DNA of 28,778 nt from Candidatus Bipolaricaulota bacterium. GTDB lineage: Bacteria; Bipolaricaulota; Bipolaricaulia; UBA7950; UBA9294. The stretch is taken from contig JAGGXO010000124.1 of the NCBI GenBank assembly GCA_021163015.1, positions 1-28,778 on the forward strand. The letters are read 5' to 3'. The first letter of the stretch is position 1; each line of letters begins with the position of its first letter. A program made the translations under genes and the position numbers. Shown here one piece after another: positions 22,125 through 28,778 of the stretch. Under the pieces are notes generated by a model, which saw only the letters and a program-made list of their open reading frames with translations, was not told the DNA's origin and did no database searches.

Positions 22125-22173
22125 TTGAACACCATTATCAATGCGATTATAATCGGTGATGATGAACAGTCAA
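22125..22173. promoter_or_regulatory. Overlapping divergent sigma70 promoters sharing a palindromic ATTATAAT
   Basis: Plus: TTGAAC (22125-30), 17 bp, TATAAT (22148-53). Minus: TTGACT (22173-68), 16 bp, TATAAT (22151-46). Confidence 0.65.
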
Positions 22174-23013
22174 AACCTGATCCTTTTGGGGATCGGCATC
22201 TTCGTCAGCCTAATCGTTGCTGCCGTGGCAATCGATCAAGCATTCCTCGCGAGAAACGATCCAATGGAGCCCGGGGGGTTGCTTGCCCGAACCAAGGTCG
22301 CGTTCGATCGTGTACAGGATCTGGAGATCGTTCTAAATGTGGTTTCCACCGGAGAGGAAAGCCATCCTCTCCAAATGCGAGTATGGTACATCAATGGGCC
22401 AGATCCGGCAGCGAGGGTCCTCTACCTTGCTCCATCAGAACTGAAGGGGCAGGTATACACCGTGGATCGCGACCTGTTATCACACTACATCCCGCAACAG
22501 AACATGACGATCATCAAGCGATGGGCCGGATTTCCCCTGACCGACCTGGGCCTCTCCAGCTTCGACCTACGCGGCATCGAACGACAGTGGAAGGACGGCA
22601 AGGTCACGTTGCGGGTCTCACAGAACATCCCAAGGTTCGATATGAAAGTCTTTCCGTGCGATCTGCTGGTCACTGAAACGATAGCCGGGTGCGTTCAGTG
22701 GAGACCGTTCTCGATTGCATTCGGCGAGACGAAGACGTGCGGGCTGGCTCCTAGCATATCAGGAGTGACGACCGACACTGGGCTGAGCCCTATCCCGGGC
22801 GGCTTCATTCTCCGAGTGTACGACAAGATCACGGGACAGATCACGAAGATGATCTCGATAGACAGGGAAACGTTCCTCGTAAGACAGGTTGTCTTGTTCA
22901 AGGATGAAAAGCGAACGACAACGATCTACGCATCACAAGTCATACTTAACCAAAACTTAAACCGTGATGAACTCCTCGTACTCCCGCGCGGAACGGAAGT
23001 GATTCGCGGCTAG
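22159..23013 (+). CDS. Membrane-anchored LolA-like (lipoprotein-sorting fold) protein
   Basis: N-terminal TM helix; RVLYLAPSELKGQVYTVD...SHYIP and KMISIDRETFLVRQV...VILNQNL...VLPRGTEVI resemble LolA-fold N- and C-terminal halves. Confidence 0.6.
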   Translation: MMNSQNLILLGIGIFVSLIVAAVAIDQAFLARNDPMEPGGLLARTKVAFDRVQDLEIVLNVVSTGEESHPLQMRVWYINGPDPAARVLYLAPSELKGQVYTVDRDLLSHYIPQQNMTIIKRWAGFPLTDLGLSSFDLRGIERQWKDGKVTLRVSQNIPRFDMKVFPCDLLVTETIAGCVQWRPFSIAFGETKTCGLAPSISGVTTDTGLSPIPGGFILRVYDKITGQITKMISIDRETFLVRQVVLFKDEKRTTTIYASQVILNQNLNRDELLVLPRGTEVIRG

Positions 23014-23017
23014 ATAG

Positions 23018-23497
23018 CTATCCTATCAGGCGTTTGAACTGCCCGAGATTCATCTTCGATTCGACGAAGTCTTGGAACTCATCCTCTTCCGCAAACGGCG
23101 ACTCTATCGCTGATGCCTCAAAGACTTCATCGGAAATGAATATCGGGCTTCCCGTACGCAGCGCCAGGGCTAGCGAATCAGAGGGACGCGCATCAATCTC
23201 CGTCGTTTCCCCTTCAGCGTTCGTCAGGAAGATGGATGCATAGTACGTCCCTTCCTCAACCCTGCTGATCACGATACGCTGCACGCTCCCTTCTAGATCT
23301 TCGATGATCGTCTTCATCAGATCGTGCGACAGCGGTCGTGGGAACTGGTTGCTCTGCAGGCTGAACGCTATCGACATCGCTTCAGACTCACCGATCCAAA
23401 TCGGCATCGCCTGGCTGGAATTCCTGTCCTTGAGCAGGATCACCGGGGCATTGTTGAATGGATCCACTAGTAAGGCCTTTATCTCCGCCTCTCGCAT
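23018..23497 (-). CDS. Bifunctional nuclease family protein (DUF151)
   Basis: PVILL...MPIWIGESEA, RPLSHDL, IDARPSDSLALALR. Confidence 0.92.
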   Translation of the reverse strand: MREAEIKALLVDPFNNAPVILLKDRNSSQAMPIWIGESEAMSIAFSLQSNQFPRPLSHDLMKTIIEDLEGSVQRIVISRVEEGTYYASIFLTNAEGETTEIDARPSDSLALALRTGSPIFISDEVFEASAIESPFAEEDEFQDFVESKMNLGQFKRLIG

Positions 23498-23613: not shown

Positions 23614-24672
23614 ATGGATACAAACGAAAAAACGCTATTCGACAAGCGTTACGACAAGAGCCACATGATCGATACGATAGATTCGTTCAATGTGCAGTGC
23701 CGCGAAGCAATAGGGCTCGGAAAGGGATTTGCCTTCTCTAGTGAGGAGCAAATCGACAAGGTGGTCATCTGCGGAATGGGCGGATCAGCGATGGCTGGAG
23801 ACGTCGCGCGGCGCTTCGCCAAGGTCCCGGTCATGGTCAACCGAAGCTACACGCTGCCCAGCTTCGCCGATAGTCGAACGCTGCTCGTTGCCATAAGCTA
23901 TTCAGGGAATACCGCCGAGACCATTTCGTCGCTCAGGGATGGAATCGAAAAAGGGCTGCAAGCCCTGTGCATCGCCAGCGGAGGGAAAATCGAGCAGATC
24001 GCGCAGGAGAATGATATACCGTTTCTGCAAGTCCCATCAGGGTTCCAACCGCGCGTAGCGACCGGCTACCTTGCGCTCCCACTCATTGTGATACTATCTC
24101 GCCTCGATCTGGTGGCACGGGCGGATCAGTGGGATGACATGTACGCGGCGCTTGGCAAGGTCAAGGCAGAATGCGAAGCGAGCGTTCCTCTGCACGACAA
24201 CCCGGCAAAGGAGCTTGCGCGGGCTCTGCACGGGCACATTCCGATCATCTACGGCACGGCTAACAACACCGATCTCGTCGCGATGCGCTTCAAGACACAG
24301 ATCAACGAGAACGCCAAGCAGCCGGCGTACTGGAACGCATTCTCCGAACTCAACCACAACGAGATCCTCGCCCTCGTACGAAGCGACCTCCTGAAAAACC
24401 AGCACATCGTCCTTCTTAAGAATTCTTACGATCACCCGGAGAACAGAATCCGAATGGAGATCATGACTGAGCTGTTCGATGGACACCATGTGCCGCACAG
24501 CGCTGTTTCCGCGCAAGGGGAGACAGAGCTCGCGCAGATCCTATCGCAGATCTACTTCGGCGACTATGTGAGCTACTACCTCGCCCTTGCAAACAAGCTC
24601 GATCCAACTCCAGTTGAGTTGATCGAGAAGTTCAAGATCGATCTGGCCAAGAAGACAGCTCAGCTCTCCTAA
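23614..24672 (+). CDS. Bifunctional phosphoglucose/phosphomannose isomerase (archaeal-type SIS family)
   Basis: CGMGGSA, SYSGNTAET, ASGG, QPR, KTQINENAK, ELNHNE, DPTPVELIEKFK. Start at 23614 is inferred. Confidence 0.9.
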   Translation: MDTNEKTLFDKRYDKSHMIDTIDSFNVQCREAIGLGKGFAFSSEEQIDKVVICGMGGSAMAGDVARRFAKVPVMVNRSYTLPSFADSRTLLVAISYSGNTAETISSLRDGIEKGLQALCIASGGKIEQIAQENDIPFLQVPSGFQPRVATGYLALPLIVILSRLDLVARADQWDDMYAALGKVKAECEASVPLHDNPAKELARALHGHIPIIYGTANNTDLVAMRFKTQINENAKQPAYWNAFSELNHNEILALVRSDLLKNQHIVLLKNSYDHPENRIRMEIMTELFDGHHVPHSAVSAQGETELAQILSQIYFGDYVSYYLALANKLDPTPVELIEKFKIDLAKKTAQLS

Positions 24673-26012
24673 GAGGGGGCTGTATCACACGCAATAAGGC
24701 ACAGATCGGCCACGTTCGTCCCGGTGGGGCCGGTCATGATGAGATCGTCGGAGCTGGCGAGGGCATGGTAGGAGTCGTTTTCGGCCAGCGTCACGTTGGG
24801 ATCGATACCCAGCTCTCGCATCCTGACGATCGTTCCACCATCGACGATCCCGCCAGCGGCATCGGTCGGACCGTCGCGCCCATCCGTCCCCACAGAGGCG
24901 ATTGCCACGCCGGGAATCCCTTCGATCCCGAGTGCCGCAGATAAGGCAAGCTCCTGATTGCGCCCTCCCTTTCCCGATCCGGTGACAGTGACCGTCGTCT
25001 CGCCAGCGGCGACGATCAACGCCGGCAGTGGAAGCGGGCGCTCGCTTTGCACCTCCTCCCTGGCGATGGAGGCAAGGACCTTACCCACTTCGCATGCCTC
25101 TCCCTCTAGTGTCGTTGTGAAGAGGAGGGTGTGATACCCCATACTTCTCGCTTCGCTAAGCACGGCTTCTGCCGCCACAGATCCGGACCCGATGATAGCG
25201 GTCGTAACCTTTGCGAACACGTGGTCCCCGGGCTTCGGAGTCTCTGGAGCAGAACCGCTCAGTCCCCTCTCAATGTAAGTCCTCACCGAGCGCGGAACTC
25301 TCTCCCATAATCCGTAGTGCCTAAGGATCCGCGCTGCATCGGCATAGGTCGTTGTGTCACCCACGGTCGGCCCAGAGGCGATCGCATCCAGCGGGTCACC
25401 CGGCACGTCGGAGAGGATCAGGGTGAGGGCCGTAGCCGGAAAGGCACGCCTCGCAAGCTTTCCCCCTTTAAGCTGCGAGAGGTGCTTGCGCACGGTGTTG
25501 ATCTCCTGAATCGTCGCCCCCGAAAGGAGTAGAAGCTTGTTTGTTGCCACAAGATCGTCAAGCGTGATCCCAGGAGCAGGAAGTGTGAGTAGGGCCGATC
25601 CCCCGCCCGAGAGGAGGACGATCACCAGATCGTCCTGCTTTGCCCTATCGGCAAATTCCGCAATGCGGCGCGCAGCAGCGACACCGCGCTCATCGGGAAC
25701 AGGGTGCGATGCCTCGACAACCTTCACTCGACTCGTCGGGACCCTGTACCCATCAGCGGTGACGACCAGCCCGTCATGGATTCGCTTACCCAGGATCGCT
25801 TCCAAAGAGGCGGCCATTCTGGATGAAGCCTTCCCCATTCCGATAACGATGATCCGCGAAACGTCAAAGAGATCGACCGATACTTCGTTGACGAAGAGAC
25901 GATCGGAATCTAGGTGCACTGCCCGTTCAAGGCAGGCTTCCGGAGCAACTGCAGTCAAGGCAGCATGGATGAAACGATCGATATCGCCACGAAGGCGTGA
26001 TTCCCTGTTCAT
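24669..26012 (-). CDS. Glycerate kinase, MOFRL/TtuD type (glycerate 2-kinase)
   Basis: GMGKAS, ASHPVPD, SGGGSAL, SDVPGD...IASGPT, GGRNQELAL, GTDGRDG, TGPTGTNVAD. Confidence 0.93.
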   Translation of the reverse strand: MNRESRLRGDIDRFIHAALTAVAPEACLERAVHLDSDRLFVNEVSVDLFDVSRIIVIGMGKASSRMAASLEAILGKRIHDGLVVTADGYRVPTSRVKVVEASHPVPDERGVAAARRIAEFADRAKQDDLVIVLLSGGGSALLTLPAPGITLDDLVATNKLLLLSGATIQEINTVRKHLSQLKGGKLARRAFPATALTLILSDVPGDPLDAIASGPTVGDTTTYADAARILRHYGLWERVPRSVRTYIERGLSGSAPETPKPGDHVFAKVTTAIIGSGSVAAEAVLSEARSMGYHTLLFTTTLEGEACEVGKVLASIAREEVQSERPLPLPALIVAAGETTVTVTGSGKGGRNQELALSAALGIEGIPGVAIASVGTDGRDGPTDAAGGIVDGGTIVRMRELGIDPNVTLAENDSYHALASSDDLIMTGPTGTNVADLCLIACDTAPS

Positions 26013-26021
26013 CTGTGTGCC

Positions 26022-26945
26022 CTAGCGAGCATCGACGGGATCGGCCCGGACGGCATCCAGAATGTCATTGATGTTCCCTGTCGCCAGGCAAATTGAAGAG
26101 TCGGCCGCGCCGTAATAGACCCACAAATCACCGCCGCGAACAAACCCGCCGCACGGAAAGACAACATTAGGTACGTCACCGGTCCTCTCGTACGGCTCCT
26201 CAGGTCCAAACAGCCAGTGACGAGTACGAGCGAGGAGATGATGCGGTTGTTCAAGGTCGAGTAGCGCTGCACCGACGCGATATATCGGGCCACCGGGCAT
26301 GTTCTTAATACCGTGGTAGAGTATGAGCCACCCATATTCGGTCTCGATCGGCGGAATCCCCGTACCCACTCTCGATCCATCCCACCATGGTCCGCGGTGT
26401 AACGGAAGGACAACGTTGTTCTCCCCCCAATGCACAAGGTCGGGTGAATAGGCAATCCAGATATTCCCGTCCTGTGCGAGTGGACGGTGGAGCATCGCGT
26501 AGCGCCCGTTGATCTTACGTGGAAAGATGGCGGCATCCTTGTTGCTTGGAGGGAAGGCAACCCCCAACGGCTCTACCTTCACAAAGTCGTGGGTGGTGGC
26601 GACCGCGACCGCTGGCCCGTACTGCGAGTAAGCCGTGTAGGCAAGAACCCAAGCCCCAAGCTCATCGATCCGAGTAATGCGACAGTCTTCAGCACCGTAC
26701 GCCTCGTAGGGACGATTGTCCCCTGGCGAGAGCGGCTGATTCTCAATCCGCCAATCTGTAATTCCGTCACTGCTGCGAGCTACAGTCAGATGAGAACGGC
26801 CAGAACGGCTCTCTACCCTTAGCAGGAGCAGAACTTGATCACCCAGATCGACGCTTCCTGCATTGAACACCGTATTGACTGGGTAAGGCATATCCTCAGC
26901 GCTGATTAACGGGTTATGCTCACTCCTTACAAGAAGACCCTTCAT
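26022..26945 (-). CDS. GH130-family mannoside phosphorylase/glycosidase
   Basis: NPLI, VFNAG, LRVE, GAEDCRIT, YTAYS, NKDAAIFP, HRP, GWLILYHG, VPNVVFPCG, YYGAADS. Confidence 0.88.
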   Translation of the reverse strand: MKGLLVRSEHNPLISAEDMPYPVNTVFNAGSVDLGDQVLLLLRVESRSGRSHLTVARSSDGITDWRIENQPLSPGDNRPYEAYGAEDCRITRIDELGAWVLAYTAYSQYGPAVAVATTHDFVKVEPLGVAFPPSNKDAAIFPRKINGRYAMLHRPLAQDGNIWIAYSPDLVHWGENNVVLPLHRGPWWDGSRVGTGIPPIETEYGWLILYHGIKNMPGGPIYRVGAALLDLEQPHHLLARTRHWLFGPEEPYERTGDVPNVVFPCGGFVRGGDLWVYYGAADSSICLATGNINDILDAVRADPVDAR

Positions 26946-27003
26946 CCTATTCTCCTTTGGCGATTTAGCAAACGGATGAATGCTTGCGTCTGCTGATAGT
27001 GGT

Positions 27004-27031
27004 AGTATGATCTATTGCACAGGCCTGTCAA
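27004..27031 (-). promoter_or_regulatory. Putative sigma70 promoter for GH130-glycerate kinase with a palindrome over the -35 box and spacer
   Basis: TTGACA (27031-26), 16 bp, CATACT (27009-04); ACAGGCCTGT palindrome. Confidence 0.55.
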
Positions 27032-27211
27032 TCCCCTATTGCCCCTTCGGTCGGTACATTCTTCTCACTCTGTGATCTCATCGAGAGGACGCAAATGATC
27101 CTCAAATCTGTTCTCTCAATCAAGTGCGAATCTGATCAAGTGTAGTGCGCATGACTAGGTACACGACACCCATCCTCAGAGATCTTGATGTGAGCCAAAG
27201 TGGTACTCCCA

Positions 27212-28369
27212 CTAGAAGAGCATGGAGCGTAGTCTCTGGAAGGCTGCAAGTTGCCCCTGAATGTATGCTTCTGCCTCATCATCTGACATCTCTTCCGTCT
27301 CCGAAACGAGGCTCAGGAATCTACCTTGCCACAGGACACGCAGCGCATCGAGGATACTAAGGGCATGACTGCCTGAGAAGGCATCGATCGCCAGGTACAC
27401 TGACTTCACCCAAAGGTCAAGAGGAAATGAGAACTCGGAGAGATCGAGGGAGTAGACAGCTTCAAGATCACCTTGTAACTCATTGAGGAACATCGCCTTC
27501 CCTCGTATGAACTCATCGTACTTAGCGTGAAACTGGAGGTAGATCCCTTCCCTGTCAACTGTCAGCTTGTGTGGCTGCACGGGCGGAATCTCCCCAAGTC
27601 GTTCGACAGCTCTAACCCCATCTACGTTCTCGATGTAGCTACGGTAGTAATCGATCAGATGGAAGAGCGTCCCTACGACCTGGTAGAACATGGGAACAAG
27701 GAGCTCCTCCGGGTCAGCATACTGTTTCGTTGACTCGTGCTCCTTCACTCCAAGGACTGCCTCCACCAGATTCATACCCTCAGCTCCGGATACGAGGGTG
27801 ATGAAGATGTCGATACCGAACTTCGCCGGGAAGAGAGGATGCCGCAGCAGTCGCTCGATAAGCCTCGCGGATAAACCGTACTCTCCGCCGATCGGCTGAC
27901 GCACGCCAAGGCCGAACAACACGTTCGTCAGTGGGTAGGCAATCTGGTTGGTGATAACACCATCATAGCGATAGCGCAGATAGTACGGGACCACAAGGTC
28001 TCTTCCAGCCATGATCGGTGAAACGAGGCGATCTATCCAATCTGGCCTGATGCTCGTAAGATCACCATCGACAAGCGCAACCGCTCTAGCGTCATGCATT
28101 CTTGCGATTTTGAAGATCGTTCTGATCGCGCTCCCTTTCCCCAGTTCTCCCTCCTCAGTGACCACGATCTTCTCGCACTGCGTCTTCGTCTTCGAGGCGA
28201 TGTCCCGTGTCCCATCGGTGGAAAACCCATCCGATACCACGATCAGCCCGGATTCACCCGGGAAGAACTTGGTTAACCCCGCGTCAACAGTCTCAATCAC
28301 GCCACTCACCGTTTCAGCGCAGTTTCGCGTGCTTATTCCAACCACGATATCTGTTGTTCCTACTGCCAT
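27212..28369 (-). CDS. GT-A glycosyltransferase, glucosylglycerate/mannosylglycerate synthase-like
   Basis: DIVVGIS, SDGFSTDGT, GKGSAI, VDGDL, RYDGVITNQIAYPL, VRQPIGGEYG, FGIDIFIT; ATG 28369 follows GGAGG. Confidence 0.8.
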   Translation of the reverse strand: MAVGTTDIVVGISTRNCAETVSGVIETVDAGLTKFFPGESGLIVVSDGFSTDGTRDIASKTKTQCEKIVVTEEGELGKGSAIRTIFKIARMHDARAVALVDGDLTSIRPDWIDRLVSPIMAGRDLVVPYYLRYRYDGVITNQIAYPLTNVLFGLGVRQPIGGEYGLSARLIERLLRHPLFPAKFGIDIFITLVSGAEGMNLVEAVLGVKEHESTKQYADPEELLVPMFYQVVGTLFHLIDYYRSYIENVDGVRAVERLGEIPPVQPHKLTVDREGIYLQFHAKYDEFIRGKAMFLNELQGDLEAVYSLDLSEFSFPLDLWVKSVYLAIDAFSGSHALSILDALRVLWQGRFLSLVSETEEMSDDEAEAYIQGQLAAFQRLRSMLF

Positions 28370-28404
28370 AGCTTCCTCCACTGTATTATCTCTTCTTAAT
28401 CTAT

Positions 28405-28778
28405 CTATCCATTATGCATGATAACGTGTAGATATCTTTCTAAGCTCTCCAGGCTGTAGAGGCGCTTCCCCAGGGCGAAGTTCTTCTTCACCATCGCTTC
28501 GCGAAGCGCGCTATCAGTCAATGCCTGCAGGCTCTCCCTTGCTGCGTGCTCAATGCGGTAATTACTCACTTGCACCAGGCCCAGATCATGCTTCCCCTCA
28601 ACCTCGCTTCCCAGGGAGATGACCGAGAATCCCTTCTCCTTGATATCAGCGCGGTATACGGGGTATTCGAAGACAACGATCGGAACGCGGGCACGCAGCG
28701 CTTCGAGAAACTGGTTCCCCCAACCCTCATAGAGCGACGGGTAGGTGACGAGATCCGAAAAGACATAACAGTCCCACA
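28405..28778 (-). CDS. GT4 glycosyltransferase, 3' end (mannosylglucosylglycerate synthase-like)
   Basis: Manual translation: WDCYVFSDLVTYPSLYEGWGNQFLEALRARVPIVVFEYPVYRADIKEKGFSVISLG...KNFALGKRLYSLESL...HNG*. GT4 E-x7-E motif present (EGWGNQFLE). Confidence 0.8.
   Translation of the reverse strand, partial: WDCYVFSDLVTYPSLYEGWGNQFLEALRARVPIVVFEYPVYRADIKEKGFSVISLGSEVEGKHDLGLVQVSNYRIEHAARESLQALTDSALREAMVKKNFALGKRLYSLESLERYLHVIMHNG

Follow-up and report, generated by a model that had tools for sequence, protein, structure and literature searches.

A Bipolaricaulota operon pairing MggS-like and Ggs-like glycosyltransferases with a predicted glycerate kinase: a candidate for glycosyl-glycerate turnover

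Genes of the locus and their conservation in relatives

The window analysed here is a whole contig of 28.8 kb (28,778 nt; JAGGXO010000124.1, assembly GCA_021163015.1) from a metagenome-assembled genome (MAG) of a Candidatus Bipolaricaulota bacterium, 1.15 Mb in size and 71% complete. One end of it carries a cluster of genes that was originally predicted to combine the synthesis of a glycerate-based compatible solute with its recycling. Four of the genes lie on the reverse strand. The first in the direction of transcription encodes the C-terminal 123 residues of a family 4 glycosyltransferase (GT4) resembling MggS, the mannosylglucosylglycerate (MGG) synthase (28405-28776; recognised by NF041101), and runs past the contig end. 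It is followed by a gene for a GT-A glycosyltransferase of family 2 (GT2) that resembles the glucosylglycerate (GG) synthase Ggs and the GpgS/MGS enzymes (27212-28381; PF00535, PF21969 (MGS_GT) and a weak GpgS match), by one for a cytoplasmic glycoside hydrolase family 130 (GH130) protein of 307 aa, a predicted beta-mannoside phosphorylase (26022-26945; PF04041), and by one for a glycerate 2-kinase-like protein of 447 aa with DUF4147 and MOFRL domains (24669-26012; PF13660, PF05161). On the forward strand a gene for a bifunctional phosphoglucose/phosphomannose isomerase (PGI/PMI) of 352 aa (23614-24672; NF006426, TIGR02128) converges on the kinase gene.

Open reading frames (ORFs) and family scans confirm the order GT4, GT2, GH130, kinase with the convergent PGI/PMI, and the gene identities proposed in the original prediction were correct by Pfam and NCBIfam. 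The convergent PGI/PMI and kinase genes do share 4 nt (24669-24672), and the kinase gene starts 9 nt past the GH130 stop codon. The layout needs amending in two respects: the GT4 is a fragment, and the 266-nt gap between GT2 and GH130 (26946-27211, reverse strand) holds the remnant of a decayed second GT4 gene (GT4b), recognised by alignment to a relative, together with a promoter-like site from a promoter scan. Because the window is the whole contig, the MggS-like gene is cut off and lacks its upstream neighbours; its N-terminal part is absent from the assembled genome.

For comparison the locus was retrieved from nine related genomes. The order seen in the window recurs in at least ten related genomes, and the arrangement is therefore not due to chance. 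The kinase gene follows GT2 in 10 of the 12 related loci whose downstream side is visible (the window, G003, G009, G010, G002, G015, G014, G004, G006 and G016; the exceptions are L030 and L128), and the core of the operon in Bipolaricaulota family f1 is MggS-like, GT2 and kinase, in that order. The PGI/PMI gene occupies the same position in G003, G010, G002 and G006, and in G014 it is about 1 kb more distant. The GH130 gene is found between GT2 and kinase in the window, G003, G007, G009 and G010, and in G016 it comes after the kinase gene; seven of about 14 related loci (G002, G004, G006, G014, G015, L030 and L128) have no GH130 in the cluster. Conservation of the neighbourhood, which had been proposed as a check, thus holds for the core, while the expected co-conservation of GH130 with the glycosyltransferases was not borne out. 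The GH130 gene is an accessory, later and dispensable addition to the operon and not part of its core.

In the relatives, genes for a solute-binding protein (SBP) and two permeases directly precede the MggS-like gene wherever the sequence reaches that far (six loci), and farther upstream come a regulator gene combining GntR and SBP domains, a divergent ROK sugar kinase gene and a phosphofructokinase (PFK) gene. The regulator (L018:3183-4646, L021:15566-17062, L128:326-1777) joins a GntR helix-turn-helix to a full SBP_bac_1 domain, an unusual one-component sensor design, and is the probable regulator of the operon. The operon permease is 72-76% identical to a Brevefilum permease. In one relative (G010:C19, L003:1565-7571) an island of three genes lies between the MggS-like gene and GT2; it encodes a GH38 protein that matches the mannosylglycerate hydrolase model NF007331 (545 bits, cut-off 1138), a 734-aa protein with a faint likeness to GH36/raffinose synthase, and a 379-aa GT-A-like protein with homologues in the neighbourhood of MggS-like genes from Sphaerochaetaceae, Hodarchaeota and Bipolaricaulaceae. 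Five genomes of the genus contain neither an enzyme like glucosylglycerate phosphorylase (GGaP) nor a GpgS equivalog, and show a single weak match to an MGH1-like hydrolase (in G008); ManC and phosphomannomutase/phosphoglucomutase are present in these genomes. The two transferases are the only candidates in the genus for GG/MGG chemistry, in whichever direction it runs.

Family relationships of the encoded enzymes

The GT4 fragment matches NF041101, the model for mannosylglucosylglycerate synthase, with 116 bits across positions 314-428 of the 431 in the model; it contains the motif YEGWGNQFLEALRARVPIVVFEYPVYRADI, and its E-x7-E motif reads EGWGNQFLE. Full-length orthologues in the relatives (454-459 aa) match the same model end to end, residues 4-450 aligning to positions 3-431 of 431, at 378-405 bits. 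Fragment and orthologues match this model only. The equivalog cut-off of NF041101 is 640 bits, and in Thermotogota the MAG copies score 367-424 bits, with only T. maritima above 640. An AF2 model of the orthologue in G003 (pLDDT 95) has a GT-B fold, and the structures nearest to it in Foldseek are generic retaining Leloir GT-B enzymes at 11-16% identity; searches of PDB sequences with the MggS-like protein or its profile returned nothing useful. End-to-end homology, the E-x7-E motif and the fold agree with the original placing of the GT4 in the MggS family, at scores under the 640-bit cut-off, and we regard the window protein, by its sequence, as a member of an MggS-like family with a predicted activity.

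The GT2 gene probably starts at ATG 28369, giving 385 aa, and the DxD motif of its product (D105/D107) is invariant across the family. When the PDB was searched with the family profile, the matches at E <= 1e-4 were GpgS (1e-11), MGS (7e-11) and MpgS (1e-4), all of which act on glycerate or 3-phosphoglycerate, and the one further match, Dol-P-mannose synthase, was weak (0.0018). Because the profile finds only (phospho)glycerate glycosyltransferases among solved structures, GT2 belongs with enzymes that glycosylate glycerate or 3-phosphoglycerate, in keeping with the glycerate-type transferase that had been proposed. A grouping of GT2 or GT4 with cell-wall transferases, which the original prediction had named as the outcome that would speak against it, was not seen. 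GT2 scores 56 bits against the GpgS equivalog NF010496, below the cut-off of 262 that would mark 3-phosphoglycerate as the acceptor, and there is no phosphatase gene in the cluster. It shares 37% identity with the GT2 encoded next to the MggS-like gene in a Petrotogales MAG, and a homologue 61% identical to it carries the JGI name 'glucosylglycerate synthase'; the leads from the Atlas were generic ones, GT2/MGS_GT and GH36-like.

The kinase, with 292 bits to PF13660 and 129 bits to PF05161, can be assigned only to the family of MOFRL-type glycerate 2-kinases, its function being predicted from context. The PGI/PMI exceeds the cut-offs of both of its models (NF006426, 355 against 295 bits; TIGR02128, 269 against 214 bits).

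The GH130 protein matches PF04041 at 203 bits (cut-off 26) and lies below every NCBIfam equivalog cut-off (NF050092, 243 against 550 bits; NF052550, 198 against 450), with only 82 bits to the hydrolase model NF058598. Its residues were mapped onto Uhgb_MS, Lin0857, UhgbMP and TM1225. The catalytic D87 is the counterpart of D137 in Uhgb_MS and of D104 in UhgbMP; R154, N161 and R192 correspond to the phosphate-site residues R202, N211 and R242 of Uhgb_MS; and E86 and K136 correspond to E136 and K184 of Uhgb_MS, where UhgbMP and TM1225 have Y and R. Across 121 aligned members of the clade, E86 is present in 120 and K136 in all 121. The E/K pair is associated with beta-1,2/1,3 specificity and Y/R with beta-1,4 specificity (Ladeveze et al., PMC12814180), and the pair binds mannose in the +1 subsite (PMC12814180). 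The protein thus matches, in its predicted active site, a beta-1,2/1,3-type mannoside phosphorylase of an uncharacterised subfamily. Its best solved relative overall is TM1225; a beta-1,4-mannan enzyme, which that match might suggest, was rejected in view of the E/K pair and the lack of mannan genes.

The history of this gene in the operon can be followed through its neighbour. GT4b is intact in G010, just before GH130, whereas in the window, G003 and G009 alignment to G010 reveals an internal deletion of about 1 kb that has kept the ends; in the window the last codons, EKNVPTEG, are still readable. A promoter-like site (TTGACA-16-CATACT, 27031-27004) lies ahead of GH130 and is conserved in G003, G009 and G010. 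Since GT4b stands intact before GH130 in one genome and has left its ends in others, the two genes probably entered as a pair and GT4b decayed afterwards. The closest stand-alone GH130 homologues (about 60% identity) share no partner, save a 761-aa GT4 in one case. The window genome has a GH130 paralogue, 46% identical, at a second locus (G000:C122, L122:1238-8091) that also encodes a GT4 of 346 aa, a GT4 of 761 aa, ManC and a major facilitator superfamily (MFS) transporter; G003, G008 and G010 show the same spacing between paralogue and ManC, and the genes lying between the two were annotated in G000 only. A Kiritimatiellae MAG (L108) has, next to a GH130, a GT4 that shares 48% identity with the 761-aa protein of this locus.

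In different phyla, MggS-like genes adjoin GH130s that belong to at least three subfamilies. Those of a subfamily other than that of the window protein, the beta-1,2-mannobiose phosphorylase type, are neighbours of MggS-like genes in Anaerolineae and Caldatribacteriota MAGs and in one unclassified MAG. Moreover, a family of proteins of about 1200 aa (P0241; L121:1941-5558 in G017:C72, L130:7001-10618 and L131:7001-10612) consists of a Ggs-like GT-A domain, about 510 residues with no family match, and a GH130 domain. The family has 102 cluster representatives, mostly from Chloroflexota/Dehalococcoidia, hhalign gives the Ggs-like domain a probability of 99.8%, and in two loci, G017 and L130, the gene directly follows an MggS-like gene. 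The Ggs-like domain of the fusion lacks several family-invariant residues and may for that reason be inactive, a binding module rather than an enzyme. A common metabolite pool would not by itself call for so strong a link between GH130 and MggS-like or Ggs-like genes.

MggS-like genes in other phyla and the closest known systems

A profile scan of one genome per GTDB species gave more than 599 matches to the MggS-like family, and the best 80 loci (L027-L106) were examined by clustering the neighbouring ORFs and annotating cluster representatives; 76 of the 80 have a clustered MggS-like ORF. The family occurs in Vibrio, Halanaerobium, Sphaerochaeta, Anaerolineae, Atribacterota, Victivallales and Hodarchaeota. 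Its usual gene order is LacI regulator, SBP, two permeases, MggS-like and a sucrose-phosphorylase-like protein of subfamily GH13_18. Permeases are found nearby in 44 of the 76, GH13_18 in 36 (mostly adjacent), LacI in 26, a glycerate kinase of family PF02595 in seven and phosphomannomutase in four. Many of these loci have a GlxK-type glycerate kinase with a CdaR-type regulator, and some have extra genes for phosphomannomutase (Vibrio), GH38 or GH130. The PF02595 kinase is not homologous to the MOFRL-type kinase of the Bipolaricaulota operon. Enzymes of this GH13_18 branch are glucosylglycerate phosphorylases typically accompanied by a glycerate kinase (PMC7178133).

In a quick maximum-likelihood tree of the MggS-like proteins (IQ-TREE), lineages coupled to GT2 and lineages coupled to GH13_18 are interleaved, with at least seven changes between the two states, and the clade of the window is sister to a mostly GH13_18-coupled clade from Anaerolineae and Sphaerochaeta. 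Adjacency of MggS-like and GT2 genes was found in Bipolaricaulota, one Petrotogales MAG and one Anaerolineae locus. Together, the interleaved tree, the partner swaps and the identity of the permeases indicate that the substrate is the same across loci. On the simplest reading the Ggs-like GT2 and the GGaP-like phosphorylase are interchangeable as the second enzyme, since both interconvert GG and glycerate, and two unrelated glycerate kinases fill the last step. These partner swaps, and the occurrence of two kinase families across phyla, strongly support the view that the locus handles a glycosyl-glycerate substrate.

Two known systems bear directly on the core of the operon. The MGG pathway of Petrotoga mobilis and Thermotoga maritima, which uses Ggs and MggS, is non-phosphorylating (Fernandes et al. 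2010, as cited in PMC3736172). The Bipolaricaulota operon resembles it in that a GT-A enzyme related to GpgS and MGS is coupled with an MggS-family GT4 in which EGWGNQFLE is present, and a Petrotogales MAG likewise has its GT2 and MggS-like genes close together after an ABC permease gene. It differs in its host, in its NF041101 scores of 378-405 bits against the cut-off of 640, in a GT2 only 37% identical to its Petrotogales neighbour, and in the addition of a glycerate kinase and a GH130, with turnover at least as likely a role. The loci encoding GGaP (GH13_18), among them the ycj cluster of E. coli, are of an import type in which glycerate is made for a kinase (PMC7178133). In most phyla the MggS-like gene directly adjoins a GGaP-like gene. 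In the Bipolaricaulota operon, by contrast, a Leloir-type GT2 occupies the GGaP slot, no GGaP-type GH13_18 being present in the five genomes of the genus, and the kinase is of the MOFRL type instead of the GlxK type. What is new relative to known systems is therefore the Ggs-like enzyme in place of GGaP, the MOFRL-type kinase and the inserted GH130.

The presence of a GH130 beside an MggS-like GT4 had been noted as a stereochemical puzzle: with its known inverting mechanism, a GH130 cannot break the alpha-linkage to mannose that a retaining GT4 forms. A published precedent for the pairing takes away much of the puzzle. In Thermoanaerobacter sp. X-514 the cluster Teth514_1785-1796 encodes an ABC importer, two GH130 beta-1,2-mannoside phosphorylases, ManC and a GT4 alpha-mannosyltransferase, and GH130 has been proposed to feed alpha-mannose 1-phosphate (Man1P) to ManC and the GT4, thereby salvaging GDP-mannose (PMC4264767). 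The Bipolaricaulota operon likewise places a GH130 beside a GDP-mannose-dependent type of GT4 in an ABC operon, and the window genome also has the GH130-GT4-GT4-ManC locus described above. It differs in that ManC lies outside the operon, the GH130 is of another subfamily (198 against 450 bits), the GT4 is MggS-like and enzymes of glycerate metabolism are present. By analogy, GDP-mannose salvage of the Thermoanaerobacter type may explain the puzzle.

Two further comparisons are more distant. TreT, a trehalose glycosyltransferring synthase encoded in the trehalose/maltose ABC cluster of Thermococcus litoralis, is a reversible Leloir GT4 proposed to process an imported glycoside. It differs from the MggS-like GT4 in substrate and sequence family; it was not among the top 50 Foldseek matches, and the fold search showed no particular closeness of the MggS-like model to TreT or to phosphorylases. 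The mngAB system of E. coli combines uptake of mannosylglycerate with a GH38 hydrolase, and the G010 operon has the GH38 matching NF007331 at 545 bits; the window lacks a GH38, the score in G010 is below the cut-off of 1138, and uptake would be by an ABC system and not by a phosphotransferase system.

Direction of flow and competing explanations

Starting from what is established directly, namely gene identities, synteny, partner swaps and residue signatures, we infer substrates, direction of flow and the GH130 reaction as follows. The full operon would comprise the GntR/SBP regulator, the SBP, two permeases, the MggS-like GT4, the Ggs-like GT2, in some genomes GT4b and GH130, and the MOFRL-type kinase, with the ROK sugar kinase and PFK genes at one flank and PGI/PMI at the other. 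After uptake of the solute, the MggS-like enzyme would interconvert MGG with GG and a mannosyl unit (GDP-mannose, Man1P or mannose), GT2 would interconvert GG with D-glycerate and NDP-glucose, and the kinase would draw glycerate into glycolysis as 2-phosphoglycerate while PGI/PMI funnels the hexose phosphates. Both Leloir-type transferases could also run forward, making MGG. GH130 would be tied to the pathway through the alpha-Man1P/GDP-mannose pool, not by cleaving the alpha-mannoside of the GT4.

We give about an even chance to the reading that the window carries the distal half of an operon linked to import, which would serve the net turnover or salvage of a glycosyl-glycerate solute (MGG/GG type). 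Of the reading as synthesis plus recycling in the original prediction, the glycerate link and the gene identities stand; with an importer, a regulator, a ROK kinase and PFK upstream in the relatives, the locus resembles one for uptake and turnover no less than one for de novo synthesis. Net turnover of an imported solute is somewhat more likely than pure de novo synthesis because a regulator and an importer head the operon, which also contains a kinase and is flanked by ROK, PFK and PGI/PMI, because hydrolase genes have joined it in G010, and because the loci elsewhere look catabolic.

Several points weigh against net turnover. The kinase falls below its equivalog cut-offs (NF041176, 263 against 550 bits; NF040791, 226 against 670), and neither the window fragment nor the full-length MggS-like orthologues reach that of NF041101. 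No orthologous permease was found in the assembled part of the 71%-complete window MAG, and the importer is attributed to the window organism from its relatives. A gene for an NDP-sugar pyrophosphorylase follows GT2 in L126, L127 and L129, which represent a second Bipolaricaulota clade and one other lineage. Leloir reactions favour synthesis. T. maritima MggS is described as making MGG from GDP-mannose and GG, and Petrotoga Ggs as making GG from ADP-glucose and glycerate (as cited in PMC3736172).

An operon mainly for de novo synthesis, in which Ggs would join NDP-glucose to D-glycerate, MggS would add alpha-mannose from GDP-mannose, the kinase, PGI/PMI and GH130 would form a recycling arm and the ABC system would recapture leaked solute, is possible, though we doubt it. 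The Ggs and MggS pathway and the synthase activities of the homologues are published (PMC3736172), MggS-like and GT2 genes are adjacent in Bipolaricaulota, the Petrotogales MAG and the one Anaerolineae locus, the pyrophosphorylase genes after GT2 in L126, L127 and L129 fit synthesis at least as well as turnover, ManC is encoded in the genome, and five genomes of the genus have no other GG/MGG route. Such an operon would, however, have a ligand-binding regulator and an importer at its head and ROK kinase and PFK genes at its flank; its kinase would use up the glycerate required by Ggs; the closest MggS-like clade is found in catabolic-looking operons with LacI, ABC and GGaP-like genes; the G010 operon has genes for GH38 and a GH36-like hydrolase inside it; and its GH130 could not cleave an alpha-mannoside by the known mechanism and is missing from half of the related loci. 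We think it very improbable that GT2 and GT4 are ordinary transferases of the cell envelope or an exopolysaccharide that lie among unrelated housekeeping genes for kinase, GH130 and isomerase, even though homologues bear the automatic name 'glycosyltransferase involved in cell wall biosynthesis' and the GT4 model resembles generic retaining GT-B enzymes in its fold. There are no membrane, flippase, polymerase or undecaprenyl-linked genes nearby, and a cell-wall role was rejected on the GT2 profile, whose PDB matches are (phospho)glycerate glycosyltransferases only, on the exclusive end-to-end match of the GT4 to NF041101, and on the pairing with two unrelated glycerate kinase families and with GGaP-like enzymes across phyla.

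Direct action of GH130 on a glycosyl-glycerate, adding a beta-mannosyl unit to GG, MGG or glycerate or removing it, by way of Man1P or GDP-mannose, is compatible with either turnover or synthesis and would imply an undescribed beta-mannosylated solute or intermediate. The insertion of GH130 between GT2 and kinase, or after the kinase in G016, fits it, as do the GH130s of a different subfamily beside MggS-like genes in Anaerolineae and Caldatribacteriota MAGs and one unclassified MAG, the fusion that directly follows MggS-like genes in G017 and L130, and the position of the window GH130 under all equivalog cut-offs. We nevertheless consider it unlikely: the homologues at about 60% identity stand alone in unrelated contexts, half of the related operons do without the gene, the Ggs-like domain of the fusion may be inactive, and we know of no beta-mannosyl solute of the glycerate type. 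In addition, the E/K pair has been described as binding mannose in the +1 subsite (PMC12814180). A broader and similarly speculative proposal, to which we attach a low probability, is that MggS-like GT4, Ggs-like GT-A and GH130 proteins form one undescribed mannosyl-glycerate pathway. GH130 might then add a beta-mannosyl unit to a GG-type compound, or remove one, yielding a new solute or intermediate; or the MggS-like enzymes might be reversible or phosphorolytic and share alpha-Man1P with GH130, so that mannose would be shuttled between beta-mannosides and MGG with no net use of nucleotide sugar. If such a pathway exists, the 'second MGG synthesis pathway' of Petrotoga would be a turnover route.

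MGG and GG are rare stress protectants whose breakdown and exchange between microbes are poorly understood. That the so-called MGG synthase family is mostly encoded in import operons, alongside a GGaP-like enzyme and a kinase for glycerate, calls the assigned role of MggS into question, and the roughly 80 loci are at odds with a purely biosynthetic role for MggS-like proteins. A Leloir-type Ggs-like enzyme can replace the phosphorylase in such operons. The operon suggests that fermenters with small genomes, Bipolaricaulota among them, scavenge the osmolytes that neighbouring microbes release, and the fusion of about 1200 aa found in Chloroflexota and Bipolaricaulota offers a practical way into a possible new specificity of GH130.

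At the PGI/PMI end of the cluster, the start at 23614 that had been assigned to this gene is an ATG, and it gives a protein of 352 aa, the length called in a relative. The longest ORF begins at 23458 and would overlap a divergent gene for a BFN-domain protein (23018-23497); the homologues agree with ATG 23614, and the BFN gene has a promoter-like site at 23559-23531. Beyond it, a 285-aa ORF (22156-23013, forward strand) has no Pfam or NCBIfam match and is kept in relatives between the BFN-domain gene and pgk at 69-84% identity.

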